Sequence record: OR352940.1
Length of the DNA: 64,000 nucleotides
Reading direction: 5' to 3' (one strand)
From: Escherichia phage AV110
Part shown: in pieces, positions 3,614-34,035 of the stretch
How positions within the stretch are numbered: position 1 is the stretch's first letter
Layout of the letters: each line of letters starts with the position of its first letter
Notes under the pieces: model-generated
Told to the model about the DNA's origin: nothing
Database searches by the model: none
The model's input: only the letters and a program-made list of their open reading frames with translations
Position numbers and translations under genes: made by a program

Positions 3614-5283
3614 TGATGAGTGATATCGCCACCGATTGGACGATAAGAAACACCAGTTTCTTTATCAGTTAGTACCCATTTACCAGGATTTTTTGTAATC
3701 AGAGTAGCCGTTACAGGTTCTGCTACGTCATAACTAATAGAGCCGTCCTGAAGTACACGGCCCATGTTACGTAATTGCTTAGTCAGAAGTTCCATACCTT
3801 TATAATATGCGGCTACCGCTTTAAGTGGATTATTCTTGAAATAACCACCTAATGCAATCCAGATAATTGCTACAGCCAAATGATGATATTCATTAAACGA
3901 ACTCAGCTTTCCATATTTGTAAACTAATGGATTGATGTTAATAGTCACATTACAAGTTGTTTCATCAATAGTAAACTGTCCCCAGGTCGGATTAGCGTTG
4001 AATTCATCATAACCTGAAACAGCGTAAAGCACTTTAGCTTCGTCGTACAATTTCGGCCCGTAAATCTTGGTTTCGCCAAAATATCCACGAGGGTCGATAA
4101 ACTTGACTTCGCCGTTATCAGTAATCATAGTATTACTGAAGTTCGGGTCACCATGAATAACAGAGTACTGTCCCTGAGAACGGTTATGATAACGAATAAG
4201 GTGTTCTAAAGCTTGTTTCAGCATTGGCTTCAGACGTCCAATCTTAGTGTAGTTCACATGTGTGATTTTACCAAATGAATCAATCAATGGTTGAATGCTT
4301 TCACAACGATCAATAACTTTCGTATAGAATTCTTTAGTGAAATCACGACGAACAGTTTCAGGACTTACAAAATAAGTGTCTGCGCTGAATTTCAGTGCAT
4401 CTAAAATTGCATCAATAATTTGTGGACGAGCAAGACTTGATTTTGATTTAATATATTCAAATGCCGGCTTACCTTTAATGCGTTCCATTTCAAAGTTATT
4501 TTCATTAACAGAAACTAACTGAGGAACTGAATCTGATTTCACTTTCAAATACCACGAAATCTCATCTTTCTGAAGAGCTCGACCCTGTTCGGTTAATGCG
4601 AATTTAGTTACAGTTTCTTCGCCAATTTCAACTGCATTAAAACTACGGTTCAGTTCACGAACTTCATGGGCCTTTTCAAGTTTAGGCATATCACCAAGGT
4701 CGATGATATTCATAAGCTCTGATTTATTGAATGCGCCGCTGTAAAGGAATTCTACGAAATCACGTCCTTTGCAGTATTCATGAATTTCCTCATCGGTAGA
4801 ACCCATATAGAATTCCCAGTCTTTGAACTGATAAATTCCTACAACATTACCGCCTGTTTCACCTACATTAGTGATATTTTCACCATCGAAATTATACCGA
4901 CATTCATCACCCTTAACATAGATTGCGTTAACATTCCAAGACCAAGAACCAAAATCGGGAATAATATCACACCAGTTAACAATTACATTATGGCCGTCTA
5001 AATCTTTGTGTAATTTAGCAAGAGCATAAGCAGAACCATACGCTTCATCAACTGTACGAATAGTCACATTGAACCCTTCTTGCTCACAATAAGCTCGAAC
5101 AGTTTCAGCAAATTTTGAATGAACTACTACAATAATTTCATCTGCGCCAAGGTCAGAATAAATTGTATACAAATTGCTCAGAATAGTGTCTTGCTTATAG
5201 TTAACAAGCACCTTAGGAATATGATGCGTTATTGGATACAAACGAGTTGCCAGTCCAGCACCAAGAATAACAGCTTTTTTCAT
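3598..5283 (-). CDS. bifunctional sugar-1-phosphate nucleotidyltransferase / APH-ChoK-like kinase
   Basis: 561 aa; N-terminus MKKAVILGAGLATRLYPIT is the G-x-G-T-R-L NDP-sugar pyrophosphorylase signature; C-terminal half has HGDPNFSN...FIDPRGYFG (Brenner HGD kinase motif plus DFG-like). Confidence 0.8.
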   Translation of the reverse strand: MKKAVILGAGLATRLYPITHHIPKVLVNYKQDTILSNLYTIYSDLGADEIIVVVHSKFAETVRAYCEQEGFNVTIRTVDEAYGSAYALAKLHKDLDGHNVIVNWCDIIPDFGSWSWNVNAIYVKGDECRYNFDGENITNVGETGGNVVGIYQFKDWEFYMGSTDEEIHEYCKGRDFVEFLYSGAFNKSELMNIIDLGDMPKLEKAHEVRELNRSFNAVEIGEETVTKFALTEQGRALQKDEISWYLKVKSDSVPQLVSVNENNFEMERIKGKPAFEYIKSKSSLARPQIIDAILDALKFSADTYFVSPETVRRDFTKEFYTKVIDRCESIQPLIDSFGKITHVNYTKIGRLKPMLKQALEHLIRYHNRSQGQYSVIHGDPNFSNTMITDNGEVKFIDPRGYFGETKIYGPKLYDEAKVLYAVSGYDEFNANPTWGQFTIDETTCNVTININPLVYKYGKLSSFNEYHHLAVAIIWIALGGYFKNNPLKAVAAYYKGMELLTKQLRNMGRVLQDGSISYDVAEPVTATLITKNPGKWVLTDKETGVSYRPIGGDITHQWERI

Positions 5284-5324
5284 GTTGAAGTCCTCATTGG
5301 TAAGTAGGAGTATTGTACACTATT

Positions 5325-5468
5325 CTAGTTAAAGCATTCATACTTTGCCTGTAGACCAATCATAATCCATCCAATTACAAGTGTTGGAATCATTACCGGA
5401 GCCGTTAAGCTCCAGTAGATAGTCATGGCAAGCATCAATAGTAAAAGTCCTATTGTTATTGCTTTCAT
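5325..5468 (-). CDS. small hydrophobic membrane protein (47 aa), below ORF-track cutoff
   Basis: ATG overlaps stop of upstream SIS gene (ATGA); GAGG upstream; product MKAITIGLLLLMLAMTIYWSLTAPVMIPTLVIGWIMIGLQAKYECFN is a predicted TM peptide. Confidence 0.35.
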   Translation of the reverse strand: MKAITIGLLLLMLAMTIYWSLTAPVMIPTLVIGWIMIGLQAKYECFN

Positions 5469-6100
5469 TGTTCGCCTCGTAACATGGCACCTAGTGCACC
5501 ACCTGGATGGAACTTAAGGAAGTCATTAGAGGTAAATCCACGTTCAGACGAAAGGTTGATAGCGAACGTATCGATAAGCGCTAACAACAATGTAGTAGAC
5601 ATTGTCGGAGCTAAAGAGTTCTCGTCAACTTCTACCGCGATACCGGTACAGAACGTATAATCAAAAAGAGCTTCGTATTCTTGTGGAATGTCAGGGTTAC
5701 AATGTAACAGAATCTGTTTAACCTGAGGACGAATCATACGAAGATGTTTAGCAACACCTATCATTTCTTCAGTCTTACCAGAACGACTGATGTGAACTAA
5801 TACATCATTAGGTGCAATAAATCCTGCGTCACCATGAGAATAATGCCCAGTGTTCAAGTACATACTTGGGATACCGAGTGAAGCAAAAGTCTCGGAAGCT
5901 TTAGTTGCGATATTAGCGTTCTTACCAACACCTGTAATAATTACTCGGCTTTCATAATTACTAAGTCCCGGGCGTCGAAGAGTTTCTAGAATAGCATTAT
6001 AACGAGCAGGGTTTTGACTAATTACTTTAGCCATAGTGGCAAGAGATGAAGCTTGTTTTACGATTGCGTCAATAGCGATAGTGATTGGTGTAGTTTTCAT
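5465..6100 (-). CDS. SIS-domain sugar-phosphate isomerase, KdsD/GutQ (arabinose-5-phosphate isomerase)-like
   Basis: 211 aa; ITGVGKNANIATK and HYSHGDAGFI..ISRSGKTEE resemble KdsD SIS motifs; C-terminal FHPGGALG is KdsD-like; no CBS domains. Confidence 0.8.
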   Translation of the reverse strand: MKTTPITIAIDAIVKQASSLATMAKVISQNPARYNAILETLRRPGLSNYESRVIITGVGKNANIATKASETFASLGIPSMYLNTGHYSHGDAGFIAPNDVLVHISRSGKTEEMIGVAKHLRMIRPQVKQILLHCNPDIPQEYEALFDYTFCTGIAVEVDENSLAPTMSTTLLLALIDTFAINLSSERGFTSNDFLKFHPGGALGAMLRGEQ

Positions 6101-9304: not shown

Positions 9305-9868
9305 TTACCATTCCAATGCTAATTTTTTAAATTGTTTTTGTTCTTTCACATTTTTTGTAACTTCTTTGAGAAACTCATCAGTGACCATGGCCTTCAGTTC
9401 TTTAAGGACTATTGGCAACTTGTTATTTTTTTCAAGGAGCCGCTTATACTCGGTAGCATCATTCATGTTGATTGTGTAATGTTTCATCAACAGTTTGATA
9501 ACTAGTAACTCTGAAGTGTCTTCGACTAGTTTAGCCCATTTAGAGAATCGTCGGCCACGTGGAATTGCCGCCATCATATAGTTGAAGTGCGCTTCATCAC
9601 TTAATTCAGAACCGACTAAGTTCATCATGTAAACGGCTGGCATACATTCTGGGAACTGGGATAATGAGTTCTCAACCATAAATTTTGAGTAGTCGACCTG
9701 AGCAATTGACATAGATTTCTTTTCATTAATAGCATTAATGATTTTAAAGAATTCATTCTCAGGTTTTTCTTTAAACATGTCAGCACATTTTTGAATCGCA
9801 TCAGCGTCGTTAGACTTCCATGCAATTTGGTGCTCGTTAAGTTGGACGTCATCATCAAATAAGTTCAT
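9305..9868 (-). CDS. 62: clamp-loader subunit gp62
   Basis: 187 aa, same length and position as T4 gp62. Confidence 0.85.
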
Positions 9869-9869
9869 A

Positions 9870-10832
9870 TTATTTCCAAGTCAGTTCGCAGGTCAGTTGA
9901 AGAAGCATATACATAACATGTAATTCAATATTACTTGCTAATCCATGAAACTTATTATTTTCGCCTGCAATTTCATAAAGCGAAATAATACTTTTACCTG
10001 GTGCAACTTTGTCATAACACTCAGAAACTAATTTATCGATGAACCATGAATAATCAGCGGCATATTTTGGAGCTAACGCACGAAGCTGTTTGATATCTTT
10101 ATTTTTCATTGCTTCTATGACATCATCTACCGTGCCACGATCATTGGTTACAATCGACAAAATACCTGCATCAAGAACACCTTTAGACGAGTACTGGTCT
10201 AATTGACCAATTGTACGTCGAAAGTCCGGGAAGTTCTTTTTAACCAGAGCTGCAACAACTTTCATATCAGCGATTTCGATATTTTCGTTCTTACAGATTT
10301 CAACCATGCGATGAATCATTTTCTTCATCATTGAGATTTTATCTTCTTCGGTTGGACGTCCGAATTCGATAACTCGACAACGACTACGTAACGGTTCGAT
10401 AATTCCATCGATGTTGTTGGCAGTAATAATAATAGAACAGTTACTAGAGAATTCTTCCATGAATGTACGAAGGTGACGTTGTGATTCAGCGAGGCCACTA
10501 CGGTCAAATTCATCAATAACAATAACTTTAGGCTTGCCTTCCATTGAGACTGAACGAGCGAATGCAGTTAACGGACCACGCACAAAATCAATCTTACAAT
10601 CAGAACCGTTGACGAACATCATTTCGGCATTGATATCATTACATAATGCTTTTGCTACGGTTGTTTTACCGGTACCAGGAGATGGAGAGTGTAAAATAAT
10701 ATGAGGAAGTTTTCCTTTAGATACTAAAGACTTGAATGTTTCATGGTCATACGCAGGCAGAATACATTCGTCAATGGAAGAAGGACGATATTTCTGTTCT
10801 AGAATGTGTTCTTTGGAATTGATAGTAATCAT
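9870..10832 (-). CDS. 44: clamp-loader ATPase gp44 (AAA+)
   Basis: 320 aa; Walker [11 protein letters not shown], Walker B VIVIDEFD; near-identical to T4 gp44 as recalled. Confidence 0.95.
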
Positions 10833-10907
10833 GTAATTTTCCTCATTATCATTAAACTGGAGGATTTCTCCTCCATAATCGTATCACAATAAACGTAAAG
10901 CTTTGAC

Positions 10908-12065: not shown

Positions 12066-12266
12066 TTATTCGTAGAAGTCGGTAACTGTCCATGCGGAAT
12101 TGCGATTAGACATTATTTTATTATACTCATCTTTAAAAGCAGATTTGAGCATTTGTTCAGTAACAATATGTTCTTCACCTGAAAACGTATTGGTCAAAAC
12201 ATATTTTTTAATTTCAGGGACAACGAGAAGATGTTGTCCAGTTGAATACTCCATGTTGTTCTCCAT
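12066..12266 (-). CDS. hypothetical protein (66 aa; T4 45.2 position)
   Basis: ORF in operon orientation. Confidence 0.45.
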   Translation of the reverse strand: MENNMEYSTGQHLLVVPEIKKYVLTNTFSGEEHIVTEQMLKSAFKDEYNKIMSNRNSAWTVTDFYE

Positions 12267-12308
12267 TTAATTTGATGTGGTCATTATAACCACATCGTGT
12301 TAAAGCGT

Positions 12309-13997
12309 TTATGAAACAGTCATTACAGTAAATCGTCCAACTTTGCTCATTTGCAAATGTTGTCCATAACGTTGAGGGTCATGGTCCCTATGAGAAATAA
12401 TGAACACGTTAGTATTTTGTAAACTTCCAAGAATGGTATCTATAGCCTTAACAGCTTCAGAATCAACTGCCCCATCAAAAACCTCATCAAGAATCAGAGT
12501 GTTGATTTTAACACCAGAGACCTTTTCAGCAATATCTCGCCATGTAAACAACAACGCGATATCAATGCGTGCTTTTTCACCTTGACTAAATGAAGCATAA
12601 CTAAAATCTTCACGACCACGTGATTTTATAGATTCATTGAATTCTTCATCAATAGAAAACACGTAATCAGCTTCCATAATTTTAAGATAATGGTTAATCT
12701 GCTTGTTGAACAGAGGCACATATTTTTTAATGATAGCACCTTTAATACCAGAATCTTTTAACATATCTGTGATAATACCACGATGGTATTTTTCAAGAAC
12801 GATATCCGATTTTGTTTTAATGATTTTATCAAGTTCTTTTTGAAGCAAAGCTATCTCATCGGCATGGTCGATAAATTCTGCTGAGGCTTGCTCTATTGCA
12901 GCTTTAACTTTCTTAGCTTTATCAATAGTGGCAATCATTGCTTGTTTCTTGGTACGAATATCAGATGCAAGGTCCTGTTTAGTCTTAACATTAGCTCTAT
13001 ATTCGTCCACTAGGACACTCAGATTATCTCTGTGACATGTAAGTTGCTCGAATGAGTGATTACATTCATGAAGCTTATCGGTAATCTTAGAGACAATAGG
13101 ATCACCCTGGTGCAACTGTGATGCGCAAGTAGGACATGTACCGCCGTCATGATACATCTTAATAACTTTGTTGTATGAGTCAATTTTAGATTTAATCAAG
13201 AATGCTTCTTGTCCTATCTTGTTGAATGCCTCAGTAGGGTCTTCATCAAGAACGATATTAAGTAGTCGCTCATTAGCTTCTTCGATTTCTGCTTTTAATG
13301 AACGAGCTTCTTTGGCTAGGTCGTCATACATATTCTGTAGACGCGCTACATTATCACCAGATAATTTCTTTTGACGTTCGATATTCTCGTTATAAATCTT
13401 AATTTGTTGGATAACACCATCTTTCTTGGCATCGAGAACTTGTCCCTGAGAATTAAGTTCGCGAACTTGAGACTTATTGATTTTATCCATTTCAGCGAGT
13501 GTGCCGACTTCTAAAAGGTCTTCGACAAGTTTTCTACGAGCAGGGGTGCTAAGAGCCATGAAAGGGGTATACCCTGCCGTCCCAAGCACAACGATCTGTT
13601 TAAAAGACGCGTATGACATTCCGATGCTACGTTCAAATTCTTCTTGGAAGTCACGACTGCTGGCAGATTCATCGAGACGAACACCGTCAACGGAGATTTC
13701 GAAAATATTGGGCTTTTGGCCACGTTTAATGAAGTATTTTTTATCATCGAATTCCATCCAAAGCTCAACTAAGAGCTCTTTCTTGTTCGTGCTATTAATG
13801 ATTTGTCCTTTCTTAACATCACGAAATGGTTTACCGAAAAGTCCGAAAGTAATGGCTTCTAACATCGTAGATTTACCACCGCCATTTTTACCGGTGATTA
13901 AGGTCTTTTGGACTTTATCTAATTGGATATCGATAGGATTCCCACCTACCGACATGATGTTTTGATAACGAACACGATTTAATTTAAATGATTTCAT
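12309..13997 (-). CDS. 46: recombination endonuclease subunit gp46 (SbcC/Rad50-like ATPase)
   Basis: 562 aa; Walker A GKNGGGKST; coiled-coil middle; C-terminal LILDEVFDG signature/Walker B region. Confidence 0.92.
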   Translation of the reverse strand: MKSFKLNRVRYQNIMSVGGNPIDIQLDKVQKTLITGKNGGGKSTMLEAITFGLFGKPFRDVKKGQIINSTNKKELLVELWMEFDDKKYFIKRGQKPNIFEISVDGVRLDESASSRDFQEEFERSIGMSYASFKQIVVLGTAGYTPFMALSTPARRKLVEDLLEVGTLAEMDKINKSQVRELNSQGQVLDAKKDGVIQQIKIYNENIERQKKLSGDNVARLQNMYDDLAKEARSLKAEIEEANERLLNIVLDEDPTEAFNKIGQEAFLIKSKIDSYNKVIKMYHDGGTCPTCASQLHQGDPIVSKITDKLHECNHSFEQLTCHRDNLSVLVDEYRANVKTKQDLASDIRTKKQAMIATIDKAKKVKAAIEQASAEFIDHADEIALLQKELDKIIKTKSDIVLEKYHRGIITDMLKDSGIKGAIIKKYVPLFNKQINHYLKIMEADYVFSIDEEFNESIKSRGREDFSYASFSQGEKARIDIALLFTWRDIAEKVSGVKINTLILDEVFDGAVDSEAVKAIDTILGSLQNTNVFIISHRDHDPQRYGQHLQMSKVGRFTVMTVS

Positions 13998-22756: not shown

Positions 22757-23226
22757 TTTAAACTCTTTCTAAGCTGCTTTTTGAATGAAGCTATTAATTG
22801 TGTTTTAGTATCTGATTCATTATATTCAAATCCTCTTTGAAGCATCTCGGTCATCATTTCCTCTTTACCTAGTCTTGAGAACTCTTTAGTTTTGTCTGGA
22901 ACAAAATTAGGATGGATATTATTATCAGAATAATCTTGTTTCAAATAAGCGAGAAGAGCTTCAAGCCATTCTAGGTAGTCGACATCACGGCCTTTAAGAC
23001 CAGAACGGTTGAACTTATGCTTCATTTGACCTTCTGCTGCGTTGCACAGAGAACAGAGTAATCCACGAACTCTACCGGCTTTTGGCCCGTTTAATTCATG
23101 GTCGTGGTCAAGATGGTTACCTTGAACATCAGGGTCTAATTCACGGTGGCAAATAGGACACTTACCGTTCTGTGCATCATAAAATTTTTGTTTTTCTTCT
23201 TTATATTTTGCGCCTGATAATAACAT
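22753..23226 (-). CDS. 49: endonuclease VII (Holliday-junction resolvase) gp49
   Basis: 157 aa; MLLSGAKYKEEKQKFYDAQNGKCPICHREL... near-identical to T4 endo VII as recalled. Confidence 0.92.
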   Translation of the reverse strand: MLLSGAKYKEEKQKFYDAQNGKCPICHRELDPDVQGNHLDHDHELNGPKAGRVRGLLCSLCNAAEGQMKHKFNRSGLKGRDVDYLEWLEALLAYLKQDYSDNNIHPNFVPDKTKEFSRLGKEEMMTEMLQRGFEYNESDTKTQLIASFKKQLRKSLK

Positions 23227-23261
23227 GATAAACCCTTACCTTAAATAGATAAGGGTATTTA

Positions 23262-23675
23262 TTAACTTAAACGTCTTTCTAAATATTCAATGTATTCTGC
23301 GGCTGCTTGCATCAGGTTACCTTCATAGCCGTCGTTATTTTCTTGTCCGGCTAATTTAGCTAAAGCATAAGAAATACGTTCACCTTCGAATTCGCCAAGT
23401 CCACCATCACAAACTACTTGGTCAATTTCTTCGAGTTCATCTATTGAATGGGATTCCCAGAAGCACCAAAGAGAAGTATCACGGTCATAGATGCAAAGTT
23501 TCTCACCTGTGTTCAACAACACTTCGATAATGCCATGGTCGCCATAACCATCTTCGGTAGTAGTACCAATTACCTTGATGATCGTATCTTTCTTTAATTC
23601 AGGAAACTTGACTTGTAGTTCTTCATCTTCTTTAACAATCTTGAACCATTTACCGCGAGTTTCAGAAATATTCAT
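23262..23675 (-). CDS. hypothetical acidic protein (T4 pin region)
   Basis: ORF trimmed to internal Met MNISETRGKW; upstream extension overlaps another ORF. Confidence 0.4.
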   Translation of the reverse strand: MNISETRGKWFKIVKEDEELQVKFPELKKDTIIKVIGTTTEDGYGDHGIIEVLLNTGEKLCIYDRDTSLWCFWESHSIDELEEIDQVVCDGGLGEFEGERISYALAKLAGQENNDGYEGNLMQAAAEYIEYLERRLS

Positions 23676-23975
23676 ATCAATATTCTCTATAAAAGTTACG
23701 ATGAGAACGTTTAGCTTTGCGAAGCTGACGTTTAGTAGGACGAACTGTAAATGGTTGTCCAGAGAAAAAATTCGGATCGGTTTTAATAAGCAAATACCAA
23801 TCATGTTTACCATTTTTTAATAAACGGTACAATAATTTAACTTGCATAATAATCTCTTCCCATTTCCATATCAATTAATTCATTTATTGAAGGTTCATCA
23901 TAACATGGTTCTTCGTCGTTGTAAACCGTTTTGACGTCTGGCTCGACAGTCTCCCATCGAGCAGAATACCACGGT

Positions 23976-24332
23976 TTAACCCCGGAGTTTATTGAGCTCT
24001 TCATAATCAATCCAGGATTCTAGCCCTGACGGCAGGTCACATTCAATGTTCCACAGAAGCTCTTCAATGGCTTGCAGGCGATTATATTCTTCAACGGTAA
24101 TGGTAACCATTGGTGCAACCGGTTCTGCCTTTTTAACCATCATATCGTTCATCAGGACGTAAAGGTCATCACGAACGACAGTGTCGTTCCAACCCCATGA
24201 TTTGGCTTCGTAAGCTAATGATGAAGGGAGCACATTTAAAACTTCAATAATAGTTGGAGCATCAGGACCAAGTTCATTGGCACAAACTTCGTATACATCT
24301 TGGAAATCTTTAAGATTTAATGAATATGTCAT
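23976..24332 (-). CDS. hypothetical protein (118 aa)
   Basis: ORF. Confidence 0.5.
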   Translation of the reverse strand: MTYSLNLKDFQDVYEVCANELGPDAPTIIEVLNVLPSSLAYEAKSWGWNDTVVRDDLYVLMNDMMVKKAEPVAPMVTITVEEYNRLQAIEELLWNIECDLPSGLESWIDYEELNKLRG

Positions 24333-24592
24333 TTAAAATATTCTCGTAGTTGGTCAAAGCCACCGATCGAAGTTCCATCAGGAGCAAACACTTGAGGCAT
24401 AGTCAATCCGACTTGTGATTCACGTCCAAGCTTAGTCAGAAGCTCAGCAATTTTTTCTTCATCGAATACACCTTTTTCTGGCATAACATTAATGAATTCG
24501 AACGGCTGTTTCTTAACAGTCAGCAATCGTTTCGCATTATCACAATAAATGCATTTATGAATAGTAGAGTCATACCCGTACACTTTAAACAT
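24329..24592 (-). CDS. nrdC: glutaredoxin/thioredoxin NrdC
   Basis: Start at MFKVYGYD; CIYC active site; near-identical to T4 NrdC as recalled. Confidence 0.9.
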   Translation of the reverse strand: MFKVYGYDSTIHKCIYCDNAKRLLTVKKQPFEFINVMPEKGVFDEEKIAELLTKLGRESQVGLTMPQVFAPDGTSIGGFDQLREYFK

Positions 24593-24998
24593 TATTTTTC
24601 CTTTCATCGATTAAATATGCAATGCCAAATACAATACATGTAATAAAACCTGTGATACAGATAGAAACCAACAACACCGTACCAAAGAACCAAATCAAGT
24701 TATCTTTAGTAGTTTGTTTGATATCCATCTCACGAATTTCTATAGCTATCGTATCACCTTTATTCAGAAGCGTATAAAATGATGGAGATACACGCCTGTC
24801 AAAAACTCGTCCTTGCTCATCTTTATAAACTGCAATAAATTCTAATTTAGAATATTTTCCTGTAGATTGACCTGAAATTAATTCCACTACCTCCACAGGA
24901 ATTACTTTAGTTTCCATGTAAGTATTCTGGCTGTTCCAAATGAATGGAATGATGGCAAAAACTAAAGCTGCGATAAAACAACGAAGGCTATATCTCAT
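24585..24998 (-). CDS. membrane protein (137 aa, two TM segments)
   Basis: Hydrophobic N- and C-terminal segments. Confidence 0.5.
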   Translation of the reverse strand: MRYSLRCFIAALVFAIIPFIWNSQNTYMETKVIPVEVVELISGQSTGKYSKLEFIAVYKDEQGRVFDRRVSPSFYTLLNKGDTIAIEIREMDIKQTTKDNLIWFFGTVLLVSICITGFITCIVFGIAYLIDERKNNV

Positions 24999-25303
24999 TA
25001 TAATGTTCTCTCAAATTTATGGAAGCATTTACGGCATTTCAATTTCAAGTTATCAGTGGTCCAGTTAACCAGTTGGACTTGGATAGTTCCACATTCCGGG
25101 CATGGATGTTTTGCTGCCGATTTGGCAGCATTTTCACGTCGTTCAACCATTTTCATTATTTCGTTCCATGCCGGAGGAACGAACTCTTCTTCACCGTGGA
25201 TTTTATCTCGCTGAACAAATTCGATCTTTGAACTATCGTCAATAAACTTAACCAAGCCATGATTAGTGCTCATATCAATATCCTCTAAAAGACGTAGTTT
25301 CAT
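24998..25303 (-). CDS. Zn-ribbon protein (101 aa)
   Basis: CPECG...CRKC pair of CxxC motifs. Confidence 0.5.
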   Translation of the reverse strand: MKLRLLEDIDMSTNHGLVKFIDDSSKIEFVQRDKIHGEEEFVPPAWNEIMKMVERRENAAKSAAKHPCPECGTIQVQLVNWTTDNLKLKCRKCFHKFERTL

Positions 25304-26253
25304 TATAACACCTCAATGGCATTTCGTAAACCATCCGCTTTCGCATTCAGAGCTTTTAACGATTTAGTTTGTTCTGCAATCTGGGCTTCGACTTCTTTCA
25401 GACGAGATTTGAGATATTCGCGTTCTTCTCTTAAGTTATCAACTTTTTCTGCTTTAGGCTCTTTAATAGGCTTAGGCTTATACTCGTTAGGGTTCTTCAA
25501 CTTAATTTGAATGCGAGAACTGTATAACATTGAACCATTAGCTTCGGTTTCATCATACATTTCTACCACGTCCATGATTCTTAACATCATGCGAAGTTTA
25601 TAAGACAGCGAACGAACGGTTTTGTTGCGCTTATTAATTTCTTCGGCTTTCATGGTACCGAGATTACGTGAGTAGTAATAAGGAACCTGGATATCAATTG
25701 ATAATGATGCGTTACCATTACCGGTTGGTTTGAATACTGCAGTAACCCAATCTTTAACATGAACTTTATTTGTACGATCATCGCCGCCTGTGAATAATTT
25801 ACGAGAATGTTTAAAAAGCATATTCACTTGGTTATTGAATTCACAAGCAAATTTATCAGCAAATTTAGTTTCAGGAATGGTAGATAACCAATCAGCCAAA
25901 TGAGTCTTTTTAACATCATTAACAATAGTGAATTCAACCAAATCGGTTTTAGATGTCACAGATTTAATAAAGCTCGGCTTCATAAAGTTTTTAATGTTAT
26001 CGCGAGCTACAGTAGAAGATAATAAACGAGAACGTTTAAACCATTGAAGCAACGTCCCTAACGAATGAGAATACGCATTTTGAGTATCTTTACAGATATG
26101 ATTTTCTTGGCCTATGTATGTACCAAAATCGCGAAGAATACCACTTACTACATCTCGGTGTGGAACATCAAATCCTAGTGCACCAGAAGCACGTTGGGCA
26201 TGAACGTTAGCGATAAGACCTGCAAAGTATTCAATGTAATGTGAACGTGTCAT
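25303..26253 (-). CDS. hypothetical protein (316 aa) with C-terminal coiled coil
   Basis: Long ORF; no motif recognised. Confidence 0.6.
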   Translation of the reverse strand: MTRSHYIEYFAGLIANVHAQRASGALGFDVPHRDVVSGILRDFGTYIGQENHICKDTQNAYSHSLGTLLQWFKRSRLLSSTVARDNIKNFMKPSFIKSVTSKTDLVEFTIVNDVKKTHLADWLSTIPETKFADKFACEFNNQVNMLFKHSRKLFTGGDDRTNKVHVKDWVTAVFKPTGNGNASLSIDIQVPYYYSRNLGTMKAEEINKRNKTVRSLSYKLRMMLRIMDVVEMYDETEANGSMLYSSRIQIKLKNPNEYKPKPIKEPKAEKVDNLREEREYLKSRLKEVEAQIAEQTKSLKALNAKADGLRNAIEVL

Positions 26254-26310
26254 AATATTTTCCTCTCGTTAAGATAGATTCATTATACTCCAACCATCCT
26301 TGGTTGTACA

Positions 26311-27306
26311 TCATTCCTTAAGAAGTTTTACTACTTGAATAAGATTAGCTCGTTCTGTTTTATTTTTACCATTTAAGCCTGCTAATCGTGAGATTTCATC
26401 GTCGGTCTGTTGAATAGTTACATTAAGTTCGTTAATCAAAGCTTCAAAGTATTTGATTTGCTCAGCATGTTTTGATTCAAATTTCTGAACAGGAATAACG
26501 TCTTGGTTTAGTTCATCAATAAGGTCTTTAAGAGCATCTTCTTGGTTGATATCATATTCAACTTCTTTTATTTCTTCAACGAGCTCGTCTTTATATCTAA
26601 CGTCTTTTAGTCCTGGTGCTGGTCCTGAAATCTCTTCTTTAAGAGTACAAACATACCCAATACGGTATCCAATGCCGTCTCGCTTGATATCAACTTCGTC
26701 GATAAATCCACAATGTTTAAGACCAGAGCCGATTAGGTCAAAATATCCTTGACGTCGTCCTTCAAACGTTACACGAACTACTAAGACAGTTTTGCCACCA
26801 ACCTTTTGAAGCTCACATTTATAAAAGTCTGTTGAACCTGAATAACTTGGATGAGTTTTAAAGTTCATCTGACGATCTAGGCCCATTTGTAAACGTGCTG
26901 TTACGGCCATAAAACGTGTTTGGTTCTCGTTAAGATGAGCAACAATCCATTTCAAAGGCATTTTACACTGTTCACGACCGAACAAATCGGTACGTCCTAG
27001 ATTACGCAGGATGTTGTTAGAGTTAATCATCGACAGAACGTTAAGTTTATTCAGCGCGCTGAAGATTCCATCAGCCATTGATTTTCCATAACCTTTACAC
27101 GCTTTAATAAGTGCTCGCGGCAGATTAGTATAGATTTCAGACGGCATATGAAAATCAAATTTACTAGTCAGTAATTGATGAACTTGGATAGCAATTTGCT
27201 CATAATTAAGTGCTCTGCGATCGTTATGGTCTTTAAACCACACTTTAATCTGTGAAGCACATAAACCGTTAATTTCATGTTTTACCGCATCAGATGTAAT
27301 GCTCAT
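26311..27306 (-). CDS. hypothetical protein (331 aa) with C-terminal coiled coil
   Basis: Long ORF; architecture resembles the upstream 316-aa ORF. Confidence 0.6.
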   Translation of the reverse strand: MSITSDAVKHEINGLCASQIKVWFKDHNDRRALNYEQIAIQVHQLLTSKFDFHMPSEIYTNLPRALIKACKGYGKSMADGIFSALNKLNVLSMINSNNILRNLGRTDLFGREQCKMPLKWIVAHLNENQTRFMAVTARLQMGLDRQMNFKTHPSYSGSTDFYKCELQKVGGKTVLVVRVTFEGRRQGYFDLIGSGLKHCGFIDEVDIKRDGIGYRIGYVCTLKEEISGPAPGLKDVRYKDELVEEIKEVEYDINQEDALKDLIDELNQDVIPVQKFESKHAEQIKYFEALINELNVTIQQTDDEISRLAGLNGKNKTERANLIQVVKLLKE

Positions 27307-27368
27307 AACTATTTCCTCAGATTGAATTGGAACTCAAAACCATTATAACCCGTCCTTGGGTAAAGCGT

Positions 27369-27896
27369 TTATGCGTGAACCGTCTTTAAACGTTCTTCAA
27401 ATTTCCGAAGAGTACTAATACGTTCTGCTTTCTGTTTTGTATAGTTTGCAATACGTTCTGAAGTGAGAGCGTATCGTTCGTTTACTGTTTCTTTCATGAA
27501 GTCAGGGATTTCACGAGAAGCTTTAATTTCATCAAACTTATCGAGTACTGCCTGGTCTTCAGCGATTAAATTTTCATACATCTCGATATCTTTCTTGATA
27601 AACTCGATATCTTCCTGGGTTACTTTGGATAAACGAGATGCTTTATCCTTTTTGTACTGCTCGTTAGTTTCACGAGACCAGAATAATGTACGTTTTTTGT
27701 TAGTGTTTTTGTAGACTTCCGCAATTCCAACTGAATCGATGATAACAATCCAATTCCAGCGAGATTTGAAAATCTGACCTCCGTCTACGGTAATCTCGTT
27801 ACCATAAGCAACGTCATTAAAGAACTTGCTTTGTGCTTCAGATTTAAATTTTCCGTCGTTATAATTTACCAGGTTGAAAATATCTTTAGCGTTCAT
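27369..27896 (-). CDS. hypothetical protein (175 aa)
   Basis: ORF preceded by an early promoter. Confidence 0.55.
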   Translation of the reverse strand: MNAKDIFNLVNYNDGKFKSEAQSKFFNDVAYGNEITVDGGQIFKSRWNWIVIIDSVGIAEVYKNTNKKRTLFWSRETNEQYKKDKASRLSKVTQEDIEFIKKDIEMYENLIAEDQAVLDKFDEIKASREIPDFMKETVNERYALTSERIANYTKQKAERISTLRKFEERLKTVHA

Positions 27897-27923
27897 GTTT
27901 TACCTCCAGTAGTTGATAGGTCT

Positions 27924-27952
27924 ATAATAACATAACTATAGACCTTGTAAAC
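27924..27952 (-). promoter_or_regulatory. sigma70-type early promoter (GTTTAC-N17-TATTAT on minus strand)
   Basis: rc of gtaaac at ~27947-27952 and of ataata at ~27924-27929; inside ATAGGTCT..AGACCTAT-like palindrome. Confidence 0.45.
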
Positions 27953-27954
27953 AA

Positions 27955-28242
27955 CTAAAAGAAACTTTTTTCGGTATTTTTTCCACTGAACCAAACAGAC
28001 TTCGGGATTTTTTGTAATTTTTCAGATTTAAGTTTCTCTTCCTGTTCTTTCTTATATACACCCTTGTCGTACTGGAGCATCTCTATGGCATTCTTTTGCA
28101 AACGATCTAAGGTAATTAAGGCTTTAGTTTTTCCTTTCAAGGAAGAGTCCTGGCGAACCTCCTCACTATATTGCATCGTAGAACTAACCATACGATGAGC
28201 ATACAGTTCGACTGCGGCTTTATTTTTTTGCATAAAATCCAT
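27955..28242 (-). CDS. hypothetical protein (95 aa)
   Basis: ORF. Confidence 0.45.
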   Translation of the reverse strand: MDFMQKNKAAVELYAHRMVSSTMQYSEEVRQDSSLKGKTKALITLDRLQKNAIEMLQYDKGVYKKEQEEKLKSEKLQKIPKSVWFSGKNTEKSFF

Positions 28243-28379
28243 AACATATCCTCTTTGATTTGTACATCATTATTTTAAATATTTCTATGCCCTCAGTAGG
28301 TTCCTGGTGTCCTTCTTTGAGGTAAGCCATATGATTATTCATCTTTATGGCTTTTGTTACCTCAGAACTTCCTATAAGC

Positions 28380-29381
28380 TTATTTCAGTAAAGTTACTTC
28401 AGAGATTTCCTCCCAACCATCTTTATCAGTTGAAATAAAATCTGCTACATAAAGAGCGGTACGTAATGATACATTGCGAAGACGAGATACATTAGCCTTC
28501 ATCCAGGACAATGCTTTATACGTTTCTGCATCAGTCAGACCACGTTTCTGCATCATGTCAGTAGATAATATTACATCTTCAACTCGAACCATAATCTCTT
28601 CATTAGAGTGTACTCCAAGGTCGAGATACACTGAGCGAGATACTAAAGCTTGAAGGTGTGGAGCAAGTTTCGAACCGCGTTCTAACTCTTTATCGATATC
28701 AACGTTTGTAATGAAAACGATAGTACCTTCAAACTCAAATTCTTTATCAATACCCTTATCATCGAGATAAGATGACGCAGTGCTCCAACAAACTTTGCGT
28801 TTATCTCCAGTATCTAATGCTGCTTTAAGAAGATTCAAGATGTCCATATCTGAGAATACGTCAACGTCATCGATTAAGAGAACGCTGTCTGCATCACGGT
28901 TGAGCCAAAGTTGTTCGTAAAGGCCAATACCAGAGATTTTACCATTAATGCTTTTGTATTTGATGAAACCATTATCATTAGCATTATTAAGTGCTTTATC
29001 CAGAGAATACGTCTTACCAATACCGGCTGCACCTGAAATAATGAGTGAACGAATTTTGCCATCGATAATGCCATTCGTCATCATGTTCATTACTTTAAAG
29101 CGTTTGTTGATACGAGTTTTCATATCTTCAGTGCTTTCAACAACTGCAACTGGTGATGTCTCAACTCCTTCCATTACGATGTCTGATTTGAAGACCCATA
29201 CTCCACGTTCAGAACCATCAATCATAACGAAAATTTTACCGTCACCTAAGTGGGAACATTCAGGATTAAGCTTTGCTGGGAACCAGGTCTTTGTGGCAAC
29301 ATAAGAACCAGAGATTTCGTTATTACGATAGATACCTTTTTTGATTTGAACGTTGAACATTTTATTCTCCAATTTACTCAT
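28380..29381 (-). CDS. P-loop ATPase (333 aa)
   Basis: Walker A GAAGIGKTY, Walker B LLIDDVD. Confidence 0.65.
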   Translation of the reverse strand: MSKLENKMFNVQIKKGIYRNNEISGSYVATKTWFPAKLNPECSHLGDGKIFVMIDGSERGVWVFKSDIVMEGVETSPVAVVESTEDMKTRINKRFKVMNMMTNGIIDGKIRSLIISGAAGIGKTYSLDKALNNANDNGFIKYKSINGKISGIGLYEQLWLNRDADSVLLIDDVDVFSDMDILNLLKAALDTGDKRKVCWSTASSYLDDKGIDKEFEFEGTIVFITNVDIDKELERGSKLAPHLQALVSRSVYLDLGVHSNEEIMVRVEDVILSTDMMQKRGLTDAETYKALSWMKANVSRLRNVSLRTALYVADFISTDKDGWEEISEVTLLK

Positions 29382-29477
29382 TTCGTTTCGATAGGTCTAT
29401 AATAACATATCCTAAAAGCATGTACACTACTTTTTTAAATATTTTAACCCCCTAAAGGGACCCGAAGGTCCCCACAT

Positions 29478-29759
29478 TTACTTATCGCACTTAGCAACAT
29501 AATTAGGCATATCACAGAATACAGAGCGAGTAACTACTCGGCCCTTTGTCCATGCTTCAGTCGCTTGTCCGGCCGTGCTATTAATATAGCTTGATTTAAT
29601 GTTCTCAATACCTTGAGAATGTGATGCATTTACCGAACCATTGGAAGGCCCAGAAGACTGGTTACCACCAGCTCCTGCACTACCGCTGGCTGCACCCGTG
29701 GTAGCACCAACAGAGAATGTCATCATTACTGCGAATAAACCAATTGCTAATTTTTTCAT
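29478..29759 (-). CDS. secreted Gly/Ser-rich protein (93 aa) with signal peptide
   Basis: N-terminal MKKLAIGLFAVMMTFSVGA; late-promoter motif directly upstream. Confidence 0.55.
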   Translation of the reverse strand: MKKLAIGLFAVMMTFSVGATTGAASGSAGAGGNQSSGPSNGSVNASHSQGIENIKSSYINSTAGQATEAWTKGRVVTRSVFCDMPNYVAKCDK

Positions 29760-29790
29760 ATTTACCTCAAGTTAAGGGTTATTTATCTAC

Positions 29791-30780
29791 TTATTTATAG
29801 TAAGAATTATGATTTTCGAGATAGACTTGCTCAAGGAAATCATCCCAGAAACTCATATCTACTTTTTGTTGCATACCATTCTTGGCAGCTTGTTCTGACG
29901 CATGTTCAACTTGGTCAACGATATCTTCTAGGAATTCTTGTACAGTTTTAAACGTATGTTTACCAAGCTTAACATCGAGAATAAATGGAGCATCCTGAAG
30001 TGGGTAAACCAGGTCGCCGGTTTTGTAAATTTCTAATAGTTGAAGTCCACCACGACATGCATGACTCAATGCTTTCCAGTCAATACCTTCGTTAGCTTCT
30101 GCCTTACGAGCACGTTCACCGTAGTTCTCTTCCAGTTTAACCAGGATGGCATTGAACTCTTTATTGGTTAACGTATCTTGGAATTTACGGTCTAACAGAT
30201 TATAGAATGTTTGCTTACCTGTTTTCTCGTTTTCGGTTTCAACCCACGAAGCAAATTCACCTACAGGCAGAACATTCTTCATATGTGATAAACGAATTAC
30301 TGCACCATTATCAAAGTATTGTCCCCATTCATTAGAACGTTTAAGGGCTTGACGAAGAACAGCCAGTCGAGAACCCTTGACACCGTATTTAGAAGCTTGC
30401 TTACGGACATACCCTAAATAAGATTTCATGTTAGTGGTATAGAAGCGAGACCTGTTATCTTGAATATACTTCCATACATCAGGCAAATCAGATTTAACTA
30501 CTAGACTTTGCGGAGTGTGAAGCATATCTAATGCGACGGTTTCACCATCCGCAGCTAGTTTAAAGAAATATTTGAGACTATACAATTCATGGTCTACGTC
30601 GTCTTTTGTGTTCTTAGAAGATGTGTTATTCGTGTTCTTGCTCATGTGTTCTTTAACGTTACCGGTCAAAATATCACGAGCATGAGGGATATAAATTTCT
30701 TTAAAATCTACGTCAGATTCAGGAGTAGACGTTCCATAAAGGTGGCTACCAAAGTAGCCTTTCATAATTGTTTTCATCAT
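29791..30780 (-). CDS. Pol-beta-superfamily nucleotidyltransferase-fold protein (329 aa)
   Basis: N-terminal GYFGSHLYGTSTPESDVDF fits the GS-x9-13-DxD NTase signature; helical C-terminal region. Confidence 0.6.
   Translation of the reverse strand: MMKTIMKGYFGSHLYGTSTPESDVDFKEIYIPHARDILTGNVKEHMSKNTNNTSSKNTKDDVDHELYSLKYFFKLAADGETVALDMLHTPQSLVVKSDLPDVWKYIQDNRSRFYTTNMKSYLGYVRKQASKYGVKGSRLAVLRQALKRSNEWGQYFDNGAVIRLSHMKNVLPVGEFASWVETENEKTGKQTFYNLLDRKFQDTLTNKEFNAILVKLEENYGERARKAEANEGIDWKALSHACRGGLQLLEIYKTGDLVYPLQDAPFILDVKLGKHTFKTVQEFLEDIVDQVEHASEQAAKNGMQQKVDMSFWDDFLEQVYLENHNSYYK
29792..29799 (-). promoter_or_regulatory. T4-type late promoter (TATAAATA on minus strand)
   Basis: Plus-strand TATTTATA about 33 nt upstream of the 29759 start; GAGG SD between. 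Confidence 0.45.
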
Positions 30781-31250
30781 TTAGCCTTATATTCAAGAGT
30801 AGGACAGACTTTTTCTTTACGAGCTTTAAGGTATTCACCTATTAATGATTTCTTACGTTCAATAGGCTCAAGTCCATTTTTAATTCGTTCTTGGTTTTGT
30901 GCAATGAGCTCAACTTCTTTATAATACTTCCGCTCTCTGTATAAGTCGATTAGCCACGGTATGCCTAATACTAAAACTATAGAAATACCAACACATAATG
31001 CAATGAATAAAACACCTACACCAATTGAGGCCGGAACTAATGTCCATAAACTACTAAAGACAAAGAATTTAGTTAAAATTTCCTGGCCAACGATTGTGGC
31101 CGCTGCTAAAATCGCAAATCCAATAATCGAAACAAACAATACCGGGAGAAACGTTTTCCAAAAATAAGCACACAACGTTTTCGGGCGATTCCATGTACTA
31201 TTAAACGCGGTATAAATTTTAAAGTGCCAAGAGTTTTCATTGATAATCAT
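30777..31250 (-). CDS. integral membrane protein (157 aa)
   Basis: Multiple hydrophobic segments; stop overlaps the NTase start (ATGA). Confidence 0.55.
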   Translation of the reverse strand: MIINENSWHFKIYTAFNSTWNRPKTLCAYFWKTFLPVLFVSIIGFAILAAATIVGQEILTKFFVFSSLWTLVPASIGVGVLFIALCVGISIVLVLGIPWLIDLYRERKYYKEVELIAQNQERIKNGLEPIERKKSLIGEYLKARKEKVCPTLEYKAK

Positions 31251-31259
31251 AATAATTCC

Positions 31260-31802
31260 TTATTTCAAAGTTGGGATAATAGAATCGAGATAAGCTTTAA
31301 GAGCAACTGCCTCATCTTTGTCTAATGTAATGATATGTTGACGAAGGTCATCAATTTGGCGAATAACTACGACATCACCGTCTTCATAAGAAGGATTAAC
31401 GCCTAGGACTGTTGTATAGTCAGGGCGGTCCTGATTTGTAATAAAAGCATTACGGCATTTAGCCCATTGAAGTTTGGCCTTTTTGGCTGTTTCAGATTCC
31501 ATTAATTCTTTCACCTTATTGACAAATGTTTTCCAATTATTAATAGAAAAACATTCGTCTTCAGTTTCGATATTAACCCCACTATAAAGTCCGTGATAAA
31601 AACGAACTTGAAGGTCTTCATCAATGTTAATTACAGATGCATGGCCGGGTGGATTGAGTTTCAAAATCTTGTCCAGTTCCATAGGAAGAATAGTAGCAGC
31701 ATCATCTTCTTGTGTCAGAACATACACATAACCACGTTTTTCGATACATAAATCACCAAACAACTCGGTTGTTTCAATTACAGTTTTCATATTATTCACC
31801 AA
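31260..31802 (-). CDS. hypothetical protein (180 aa)
   Basis: ORF. Confidence 0.55.
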   Translation of the reverse strand: MVNNMKTVIETTELFGDLCIEKRGYVYVLTQEDDAATILPMELDKILKLNPPGHASVINIDEDLQVRFYHGLYSGVNIETEDECFSINNWKTFVNKVKELMESETAKKAKLQWAKCRNAFITNQDRPDYTTVLGVNPSYEDGDVVVIRQIDDLRQHIITLDKDEAVALKAYLDSIIPTLK

Positions 31803-31973
31803 TTAAAGTTTCAACAAAATTCACCAAATCATTCAGACAAGCATCAACCTGTTTTTCATAAAAGTCTTCGTTATCATTTACTGCATGATAAGCTACATCA
31901 TTCAAATCTGAATCGGCTTCACGTAAGTCACGGATAAGGTCCATCAATTTATTAGCTTGTTCACGGGTCATTT
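31797..31973 (-). CDS. small hypothetical protein (~59 aa), below ORF-track cutoff
   Basis: MTREQANKLMDLIRDLREADSDLNDV...; downstream of early promoter at 32107-32136. Confidence 0.3.
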
Positions 31974-32106
31974 TACCATACTCGTTTCAATAAGATTCAC
32001 TATGCCGTTTACCATGTTATAAGTAAACATCGGATAATTATATTGTACTACAACATAAGCGATAAGCAAAAGTTTCATTTTGGTCTCCGTTCGTTTTGAT
32101 AGGACC

Positions 32107-33453: not shown

Positions 33454-34035
33454 TTATAACAACCCTGTCAAATCATTCCAATGCTTCCGGCATAATGACA
33501 CATATCTATCGGTATCACCAATTTCAATTTGACTGCCATCTGTAATTGGAAGTCCGTCTTCCGTGACTCTAGCTACCATTGTGGCCTTTTTACCACAATG
33601 ACAGACACCTTTAAGTTCAACAAGCTTATCAGCAATAGCCATTAATGCTTGAGAACCTTCAAATAGATTACCTTTAAAATCTGTTCGTAGTCCATATGCC
33701 ATTACCGGCACATTGTATACGTCAACAATACGACTAAGTTGATACACCTTTTCAGTAGTTAAGAACTGAGCTTCGTCAACAAATACACAATGAATATCCT
33801 TTTGTGCTGCAGCCCATTTATAGAATTCAAAGATATCCATGTCTTTTGTAATTATATTGGCATCCTGACGAATACCAATACGAGAGACTATTTCACCTTT
33901 TGAATCACGAGTATCAATAGCCGGTTTAAGAACTAATACACCCATGCCACGTTCTTTATAGTTATGTGCGGCAGTAAGTAATGAAGCAGACTTACCAGCA
34001 TTCATAGCGGCATATGTAAAAATTAAACTAGCCAT
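33454..34035 (-). CDS. tk: thymidine kinase
   Basis: 193 aa; Walker A MNAGKS; C-terminal CHCGKKA...CRKH zinc site; TK1-family layout. Confidence 0.9.
   Translation of the reverse strand: MASLIFTYAAMNAGKSASLLTAAHNYKERGMGVLVLKPAIDTRDSKGEIVSRIGIRQDANIITKDMDIFEFYKWAAAQKDIHCVFVDEAQFLTTEKVYQLSRIVDVYNVPVMAYGLRTDFKGNLFEGSQALMAIADKLVELKGVCHCGKKATMVARVTEDGLPITDGSQIEIGDTDRYVSLCRKHWNDLTGLL

Follow-up and report, generated by a model that had tools for sequence, protein, structure and literature searches.

Accessory early-gene cassettes between nrdC and tk in Escherichia phage AV110: a candidate Druantia III inhibitor, coiled-coil proteins and a conserved AAA+ ATPase

Do the large early genes that lie between nrdC and tk in T4-type phages act together as one functional unit, or are they separate genes that merely stand side by side? 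The question is raised by a block at positions 25303-29381 of a 64,000-nucleotide stretch of Escherichia phage AV110 DNA (sequence record OR352940.1; the whole stretch is referred to here as the window), in which the initial annotation had recognised two coiled-coil proteins, a 175-amino-acid (aa) protein and a P-loop ATPase, had assigned none of them to a family, and had proposed a functional unit arranged as an operon. The present analysis suggests, with a probability of roughly 0.6, that the block is made up of accessory early-gene cassettes, each independent of the others, within the anti-defence island between nrdC and tk of T-even phages, and is not one machine.

The window represents a T4-type, Mosigvirus-like phage, and 151 phage records match the 4079-base interval with 95–99% DNA identity, among them APCEc01, vB_Eco_mar005P1 (record named Mosigvirus mar005p1) and JS09. 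The four open reading frames (ORFs) annotated, of 316, 331, 175 and 333 aa, are all present on the minus strand at the coordinates assigned to them, and their placement between nrdC and tk is correct; the inventory was incomplete, a fifth ORF of 95 aa having been overlooked. The genes are listed below, with T4 counterparts assigned by BLASTP against T4 proteins translated from NC_000866:

25303-26253, minus strand: w316, 316 aa; T4 NrdC.3, 56% identity
26311-27306, minus strand: w331, 331 aa; T4 NrdC.6, 29% identity
27369-27896, minus strand: w175, 175 aa; T4 NrdC.8, 83% identity (82.9%)
27955-28242, minus strand: w95, 95 aa; T4 NrdC.9, 31% identity; Pfam DUF7203, E 2.3e-22
28380-29381, minus strand: w333, ORF of 333 aa; probable gene 28380-29360, 326 aa; T4 NrdC.10, 77.5% identity
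24998-25303, minus strand: w101, 101-aa zinc-ribbon protein, NrdC.2 orthologue, just outside the block
24329-24607: nrdC, flanking gene
33457-34035: tk, flanking gene

Each ORF of the block matches a PHROG (E values from 1e-105 to 1e-161 for w316, w331, w175 and w333, and 2.7e-25 for w95) as well as a T4 nrdC.x protein, and, judged by sequence, the genes are members of T4 accessory families already known; the view that they belong to no recognisable family is thus not upheld. Homology to T4 nrdC.x proteins is clear, but these are not housekeeping proteins, as all of them are non-essential and the characterised ones are anti-defence proteins. The description of the block as early-type, non-structural genes of mostly unknown function is borne out, with promoter-like spacers preceding most of them. 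The region is also plastic, as had been proposed: gene content between nrdC and nrdC.10 varies among T4-like genera, and even between phages that are 98% identical in DNA. Scans of all proteins against Pfam, NCBIfam and PADLOC gave nothing over threshold except DUF7203 (w95) and RlaP (NrdC.11, encoded by a flanking gene), and an Rfam scan of positions 23000-32000 found no RNA family.

Separate cassettes and a candidate Druantia III inhibitor

The genes w316, w331, w175 and w333 each lie behind a spacer of 57–116 nt that contains GTTTAC or TGTACA followed by TATAAT or TATTAT, together with a ribosome-binding site (RBS). Elements of this type are what we take to be the T4 early-promoter consensus, and those in the spacers are conserved with the matching spacers of T4; for example, the T4 spacer upstream of nrdC.8 carries GTTTACA...TACTAT, which is equivalent to the site upstream of w175. 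The overall number of promoter-like sites was considered as evidence and rejected, since 34 were found against 30.9 expected, which is not above chance; what is informative is only that they lie in intergenic spacers and are conserved with T4. The elements located in the window are:

26254-26310, minus strand: spacer with early-promoter-like TGTACA-N17-TATAAT at 26310-26282, an RBS and one copy of a ~30-bp repeat
27924-27951, minus strand: early-promoter-like site upstream of w175, TTTACA-N16-TATTAT, with TG
29426-29399, minus strand: early-promoter-like site TGTACA-N16-TATTAT, after the hairpin and before w333
29473-29456, minus strand: hairpin GGGGACC-UUCG-GGUCCCU, upstream of w333

The hairpin and the promoter-like site (29399-29473) mark a predicted transcription-unit boundary upstream of w333. 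The energy of this hairpin is unexceptional (z = -1.08); at the place upstream of nrdC.10, T4 has a stronger terminator and a GTTTACA promoter.

The genes also differ in phyletic range. NrdC.10 was present in 20/20 of the T4-like loci of the initial set, has 386 database homologues and matches >575 IMG/VR stretches, whereas only Tequatro-, Mosig- and Dhaka-type phages have NrdC.3, NrdC.6 and NrdC.8. Loci L010–L020 keep NrdC.10, with NrdC.3, NrdC.6 and NrdC.8 absent by BLAST.

Transposon data that separate the phenotypes of these genes are available from the HIDEN-SEQ preprint (2025) for phage Bas37, with host comparisons on CFT073, CFE303 and CFE331. T4 nrdC.1–.11 and Bas37 genes 0196–0206 are all non-essential on K-12 (doi 10.1101/2025.11.20.689424). 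On CFE303, bas37_0203, the NrdC.8 orthologue, was the sole depleted gene of the cluster (log2 fold change (log2FC) -5.80, adjusted P value 0), while the orthologues of NrdC.3 (log2FC -0.21), NrdC.6 (+0.68), NrdC.9 (-0.21), NrdC.10 (-0.08) and NrdC.11 (+0.43) were neutral; the same five were also neutral on CFE331, and on CFT073 they did not reach significance (doi 10.1101/2025.11.20.689424).

Neither the co-inheritance nor the shared phenotype of a single operon or functional module was found, as the phyletic ranges differ and conditional essentiality on CFE303 is limited to the NrdC.8 orthologue. Thus, because of the separate promoter spacers, the differing phyletic ranges and the separated transposon phenotypes, the block is not regarded as one unit, and the operon proposed for it is not retained.

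The protein w175 matches PHROG 2274 over the whole profile (E 1e-105) and shares 83.4% identity over 175/175 residues with Bas37_0203, which, as translated from the Bas37 genome (MZ501089), is 175 aa long and 98.3% identical to T4 NrdC.8. The N-terminal half of w175 is not coiled and the C-terminal half is helical and coiled-coil-like; no PDB relative was found by sequence or profile search (nothing at E < 0.25). The gene order NrdC.10–NrdC.9–NrdC.8 is common to the window, T4, Bas37 and loci L002–L003, with no NrdC.9 detected in loci L004–L008, and the position of w175, downstream of NrdC.9/NrdC.10 and upstream of the NrdC.6/7 genes, is conserved. A NrdC.7-like gene lies between NrdC.8 and NrdC.6 in T4 and Bas37, and not in the window. 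As for the overlooked w95, its C-terminal motif (S/V)(A/S/V)WF.G...(F/Y)(F/Y/H) is shared with T4 NrdC.9 and with nine further T4-like loci inspected.

Host CFE303 carries DruH and DruE, and bas37_0203 has been reported as a bona fide Druantia III inhibitor (doi 10.1101/2025.11.20.689424). Bas37_0203 and T4 NrdC.8 resemble w175 in length (175 aa), in full-length identity (83%) and in position within the nrdC.3–nrdC.10 array, whereas 17% of residues differ between Bas37_0203 and w175, and the host phage of the former is a Tequatrovirus and that of the latter Mosigvirus-like. It is therefore quite likely from orthology that w175 is an anti-Druantia III protein, the confidence being kept short of firm because allele specificity can differ. 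By this orthology, w175 would be a protein inhibitor of Druantia type III (DruH sensor and DruE helicase-nuclease), which may bind DruH or DruE directly. In this way, w175 gains a concrete candidate function.

GenBank records often label homologues of NrdC.3, NrdC.6, NrdC.8 and NrdC.10 'thioredoxin', because the 'nrdC.x' gene names have been propagated; none of these proteins is similar to thioredoxin. In the same vein, nrdC.8 is taken for a nucleotide reductase in a 2026 paper.

The coiled-coil proteins w316 and w331

The protein w316 falls into the NrdC.3 family over its full length (PHROG 1435, E 1e-105; 33/33 homologues tagged PF26897 in precomputed Pfam assignments) and is 77% identical to Bas37_0198. 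Columns invariant between NrdC.3 and NrdC.4 (alignment A3) include T2, R3, Y6, FK.SR.LS and GD.R. It comprises a helical N-region, a small alpha/beta domain, a linker, and a C-terminal coiled coil of ~42 residues (275–316), the heptad tail of which, EEREYLKSRLKEVEAQIAEQTKSLKALNAKADGLRNAIEVL, is near-invariant even between orthologues that are 57% identical. In the AlphaFold model (AF2), a single helix at 275–315 is the best-scored part. The annotated architecture of a globular N-domain with a C-terminal coiled coil is therefore supported for w316 by clean heptads and this long predicted helix; for w331, it is indicated by a heptad heuristic and weak coiled-coil Pfam matches.

The NrdC.3 family is narrow. 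A HMMER search with the family profile (a hidden Markov model, HMM) found 5 representatives among 1.84 billion proteins, all of them NrdC.3 or NrdC.4, and no cellular relatives among these 1.84 billion representatives. Sequence and profile searches with w316 (alignments A2 and A3) gave no PDB match at E < 0.25. A fold search of BFVD with the w316 model returned 4 matches below E 1e-3, 308–370 aa in length, 2/4 of which are from named T4-like phages, the other two being listed without a name; TM-scores were low except for the orthologue.

A closer association was found just outside the block. The stop codon of w316 overlaps the start of w101, a zinc-ribbon protein with a CPxC...CxxC motif that is 51% identical to T4 NrdC.2 (PHROG 1474, E 2e-38), and the same overlap of coiled-coil and zinc-ribbon genes occurs in T4 and in loci L010, L013 and L017, which represent three other genera. 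In 8/9 of the other-genus loci listed, one coiled-coil-tailed protein of 337–366 aa is encoded directly upstream of the NrdC.2 gene, several of them overlapping it; in the ninth, the coiled-coil protein gene is not directly adjacent. This arrangement suggests that w316 and w101 form a coupled two-gene module, in which w316 and the zinc-ribbon protein, being translationally coupled, probably work together, and the pair is a more credible 'unit' than the block originally proposed.

The conservation of the stop/start overlap in T4 and three further genera also favours an alternative, in which w316 and w101 constitute a conserved module whose role is internal to the phage, for instance in regulation or in the binding of nucleic acids, and NrdC.4, NrdC.5 and NrdC.6 are offshoots that acquired new functions. 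In agreement with this, 11/26 NrdC.3 homologues weakly match the DNA-binding domain Phage_int_SAM_1 (best E 0.051), and a weak match to a tyrosine-recombinase N-terminal region was obtained. However, the DNA-binding-type matches are all under family thresholds and come from closely related sequences, and neither PDB nor profile searches lend support. Moreover, NrdC.2 and NrdC.3 are non-essential, nrdC.1–6 can be deleted in T4, and both proteins diverge fast (51% and 56% identity to T4, respectively). A phage-internal role is thus considered unlikely, though it fares better than the other alternatives to independent anti-defence cassettes.

The second coiled-coil protein, w331, belongs over its full length to the NrdC.6 family (PHROG 2257, E 1e-127; homologues tagged PF26899), of which it is a divergent representative. 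It is 34% identical to full-length Bas37_0201, and 29–34% identical over 80–92% of its length to the NrdC.6 proteins of T4 and Bas37. The protein is not coiled at about 1–235, and this part is followed by an acidic helical segment and a C-terminal coiled coil at ~275–331 (~275–311 by heuristic scoring). Compared with Tequatrovirus NrdC.6 (29–34% identity), the acidic helical segment of w331 is extra. Only 4 clusters at 90% identity were found for w331 in 5.8 billion proteins, while 741 phage records were retrieved by tblastn, of which 587 show less than 60% identity; no PDB match at E < 0.25 was found by sequence or profile search.

The T4 reference record gives NrdC.6 (12067-12894 of the T4 locus) as a 275-aa protein with an atypical end, whereas NrdC.6 of Bas37 (5034-5921 of the Bas37 locus) and of T4D is 295–296 aa long, with the usual ...KLIKIVDLLKS tail. 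The T4 reference entry is probably frameshifted or truncated at the 3' end.

The initial annotation also held that w316 and w331 share an architecture, which they do; homology between them is not detectable, and common descent is not established by sequence comparison. NrdC.3 and NrdC.4 are clear paralogues (hhalign probability 97.9%, E 5e-13; full-length alignment A3). The links to NrdC.5, NrdC.6 and the other-genus proteins are collinear but marginal (hhalign 55–73%). NrdC.3 alone matched NrdC.5 at 12%, NrdC.3 and NrdC.4 together matched NrdC.5 at 55% over 221 collinear columns, and NrdC.6 matched NrdC.5 at 1%. Iterative HMM searches started from NrdC.3 converged on NrdC.3 and NrdC.4 only. 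A motif near residues 55–100, K/R-x-x-h-L/I/T-S/T...I/L..N-F/Y, was found among 2193 ORFs with 13/14 of its matches in family members.

The AAA+ ATPase NrdC.10

Both Walker motifs of the annotated ATPase are present in w333, but the length of 333 aa is probably not that of the gene product. Nearly all of the 120 homologues listed (mostly 321–335 aa) start at the eighth codon, the second ATG at 29360, and the closest of them is 100% identical and 326 aa long. Because the homologues start at this ATG and GGAG lies 8 nt upstream of it, the real gene is probably 28380-29360, encoding 326 aa from a start 21 nt downstream of the ORF opening.

The alignment of 32 homologues revealed invariant Walker A (GAAGIGKT), Walker B (LLIDDVD), sensor 1 (FITN), arginine-finger (SRS) and sensor 2 (LR..SLR) motifs. 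The AlphaFold model (predicted local distance difference test (pLDDT) score 89) shows a five-stranded N-terminal beta domain (1–63), an AAA+ core and a helical lid, with two short strands inserted in the core before sensor 1. All motifs, the alpha/beta core and the helical lid place w333 among AAA+ proteins, and on these motifs and this model it is a catalytically complete, probably ring-forming AAA+ ATPase of the clade in which a beta-hairpin is inserted before sensor 1.

Among known proteins, w333 comes closest to the MoxR-type AAA+ proteins NorQ and CbbQ (PDB 9qh4 and 6l1q), whose structural advantage over other clades is small, and to further AAA+ proteins in which a hairpin precedes sensor 1, namely sigma-54 activators, HslU and midasin. 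Assignment to the MoxR subfamily is not supported, as Pfam gave no MoxR-type match for w333, only sub-threshold AAA_22, AAA_16 and AAA_14, and no MoxR-associated VWA gene is present among its neighbours. Similarly, neither a profile match to the clamp-loader (gp44/RFC) clade nor a C-terminal collar was found in w333.

In ~73 distant loci (31–43% identity; IMG/VR L031–L103), NrdC.10 is not adjacent to NrdC.9 or NrdC.11. A tie between NrdC.10 and the nucleotidyltransferase NrdC.11 was considered and rejected: only T4-like phages that are enterobacterial, or closely related to these, have the two genes side by side, and 2/~73 of the distant loci have them within 10 kb of each other, non-adjacent. 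The distant loci have a UvsW-like helicase directly downstream of NrdC.10 in 43 cases, a UvsY-like gene upstream in 20 and a UvsX-like gene upstream in 15. This neighbourhood is possibly a lead towards a role of w333 in recombination or replication, and w333 may be a substrate remodeller acting in one of these processes. In any case, w333 is unrelated to the other cassettes, and is an independent, widely conserved gene. NrdC.10 thus stands apart in the island as an AAA+ ATPase conserved across T4-like phages, the role of which is still unassigned after 20 years of annotation.

Anti-defence reading, cassette turnover and flanking genes

The T-even nrdC–tk region is emerging as an anti-defence island, with pairs of inhibitor and target that include Gp49.2/OLD, NrdC.1/Septu, NrdC.5/Dsr1 and NrdC.8/Druantia III. 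NrdC.1 counters Septu. Gp49.2 inhibits OLD (PMC13096335), and T4 NrdC.5 neutralises the SIR2 defence protein Dsr1 and restores growth on Dsr1-bearing cells (eLife 2022, PMC9391042). The genes nrdC.1–6 can be deleted from T4 (PMC9825161).

Of these proteins, T4 NrdC.5 provides the nearest analogy to w316 and w331. It is encoded in the same tandem array behind its own early-promoter spacer, is 340 aa long, and consists of an N-terminal head followed by a heptad coiled coil at the C-terminus, with ...L..AL.AL at its end, whereas its sequence homology to w316 and w331 is marginal or absent. T4 NrdC.4 likewise shares the layout of head and coiled coil and is encoded by a promoter-headed cassette of the same array. 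The sequences themselves diverge at different rates: identity to T4 is 78–90% for NrdC, gp49, tk, NrdC.10 and NrdC.11, and falls to 56% for w316, 29% for w331 and 51% for w101.

The layout and array position shared with NrdC.5, the anti-defence neighbours, the deletability of the genes, and their divergence, which is faster than that of the neighbouring enzymes, make it likely by analogy that w316 and w331 have an anti-defence role. They may inhibit proteins of host immunity or host range stoichiometrically, or act as decoys for them, with the fast-diverging head (230–270 residues) conferring target specificity and the C-terminal coiled coil mediating oligomerisation. Both proteins are priority candidates for new immune antagonists, with a bearing on host-range prediction and on the choice of therapy phages.

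A broader proposal, which is regarded as tentative, is that NrdC.3, NrdC.4, NrdC.5, NrdC.6 and the coiled-coil-tailed proteins of 337–366 aa from other genera constitute one ancient, fast-diversifying family of immune antagonists. Such a family would combine a variable target-binding head with a conserved oligomerising stalk, and would be encoded in an array of promoter-headed cassettes shuffled by spacer recombination; this part of the proposal is just as speculative. If true, w316 and w331 would each disarm a further host defence system.

Several observations weigh against reading the region as a set of anti-defence cassettes. The function of NrdC.8 derives from a single preprint, and from a phage protein that differs from w175 by 17%; specificity can shift, as the Alt proteins of T4 and Bas37 are not interchangeable (doi 10.1101/2025.11.20.689424). 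The orthologues of NrdC.3, NrdC.6 and NrdC.10 had no significant phenotype on CFT073, CFE303 or CFE331 (doi 10.1101/2025.11.20.689424), which would mean that their targets, if any, are absent from these hosts. Apart from its terminal helix, the model of w316 is poor (pLDDT 58), so that the fold evidence is weak and the BFVD result at best suggestive. As for a common family, the w316 and w331 families matched each other directly at an hhalign probability of <=4%, an HMM of the tail (last 48 residues of NrdC.3/4) retrieved no NrdC.5, NrdC.6 or other-genus tails (E > 1), and the motif common to the middle of the proteins was defined post hoc on the very sequences that share it. Finally, inherited synteny between related phages could be enough to account for the position of NrdC.10 near uvsW.

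The original proposal of one functional unit, in which the coiled-coil proteins, the 175-aa protein and the ATPase would act together, for example as adaptors delivering substrate to an AAA+ motor, was also weighed against these cassettes. The genes are indeed adjacent, early and on the same strand; NrdC.10 occurs in every T4-like enterobacterial locus examined and a coiled-coil-tailed protein also in 8/9 of the other-genus loci listed; and the near-invariance of the w316 tail between orthologues only 57% identical suggests a specific partner. On the other hand, most of the genes are divided by promoter-like spacers, and the ~73 distant NrdC.10 loci are without NrdC.8, NrdC.9, NrdC.2 or NrdC.11 (the neighbours tested by HMM). 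The NrdC.3 and w331 families are restricted to T-even-type phages, loci L010–L020 retain NrdC.10 without NrdC.3, NrdC.6 or NrdC.8 as noted above, and on the Druantia host only the NrdC.8 orthologue is of consequence, insertions in the orthologues of NrdC.10, NrdC.3 and NrdC.6 being neutral. A single machine is therefore judged very improbable. Least probable of all is a reading of w316 and w331 as filler, in the form of decaying or selfish ORFs that currently have no selected function, for although natural deletions and remnants are frequent, the genes are non-essential and no phenotype was seen on three clinical hosts, intact full-length ORFs are found in 650–740 phage genomes, NrdC.3/NrdC.4 residues are invariant and the tail nearly so, and each gene has its own promoter and RBS.

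The organisation in independent cassettes agrees with signs of turnover in the array. In 22/25 of the best DNA matches, the region is ~1 kb longer than in the window, and the extra ~1 kb is a gene for a 319-aa NrdC.5-like protein, located in these near relatives exactly between w331 and w316. In locus L002, this gene is flanked by spacers at 9795-9849 and 10810-10871, both of which share a ~30-bp repeat, TACAACCAAGGA(T/C)GGTTGGAGTATAAT. The corresponding spacer of the window (26254-26310) is a hybrid: its left half is identical to the spacer that lies upstream of the 319-aa gene in L002, and its right half to the one downstream of that gene. The hybrid sequence is consistent with the deletion or insertion of a cassette by recombination between repeated promoter spacers, and such recombination would be a simple means of gaining and losing cassettes. 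Phages ACG-C40 (L021, 6001-6138) and Pinarejo (L022, 6001-6135) retain unannotated remnants that comprise only the C-terminal tails of NrdC.3 and NrdC.6, and that are, as read from their sequences, scars of deletions inside the cassette array.

A tblastn search of the whole window detected no homologue of T4 gp49.2 (anti-OLD), nrdC.1 (anti-Septu), nrdC.4 or nrdC.5 (anti-Dsr1). Lacking homologues of T4 49.2, nrdC.1 and nrdC.5, the phage would have a counter-defence repertoire unlike that of T4.

The remaining features include a 93-aa ORF at a position (29478-29759) where T4 has no gene:

NrdC.7-like membrane protein, flanking gene
29791-30780: NrdC.11, RlaP-type nucleotidyltransferase, flanking gene
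29478-29759: 93-aa ORF between NrdC.10 and NrdC.11, with a signal-peptide-like N-terminus, a weak YbgS-like match (E 1.3e-4) and a match to PHROG 2243

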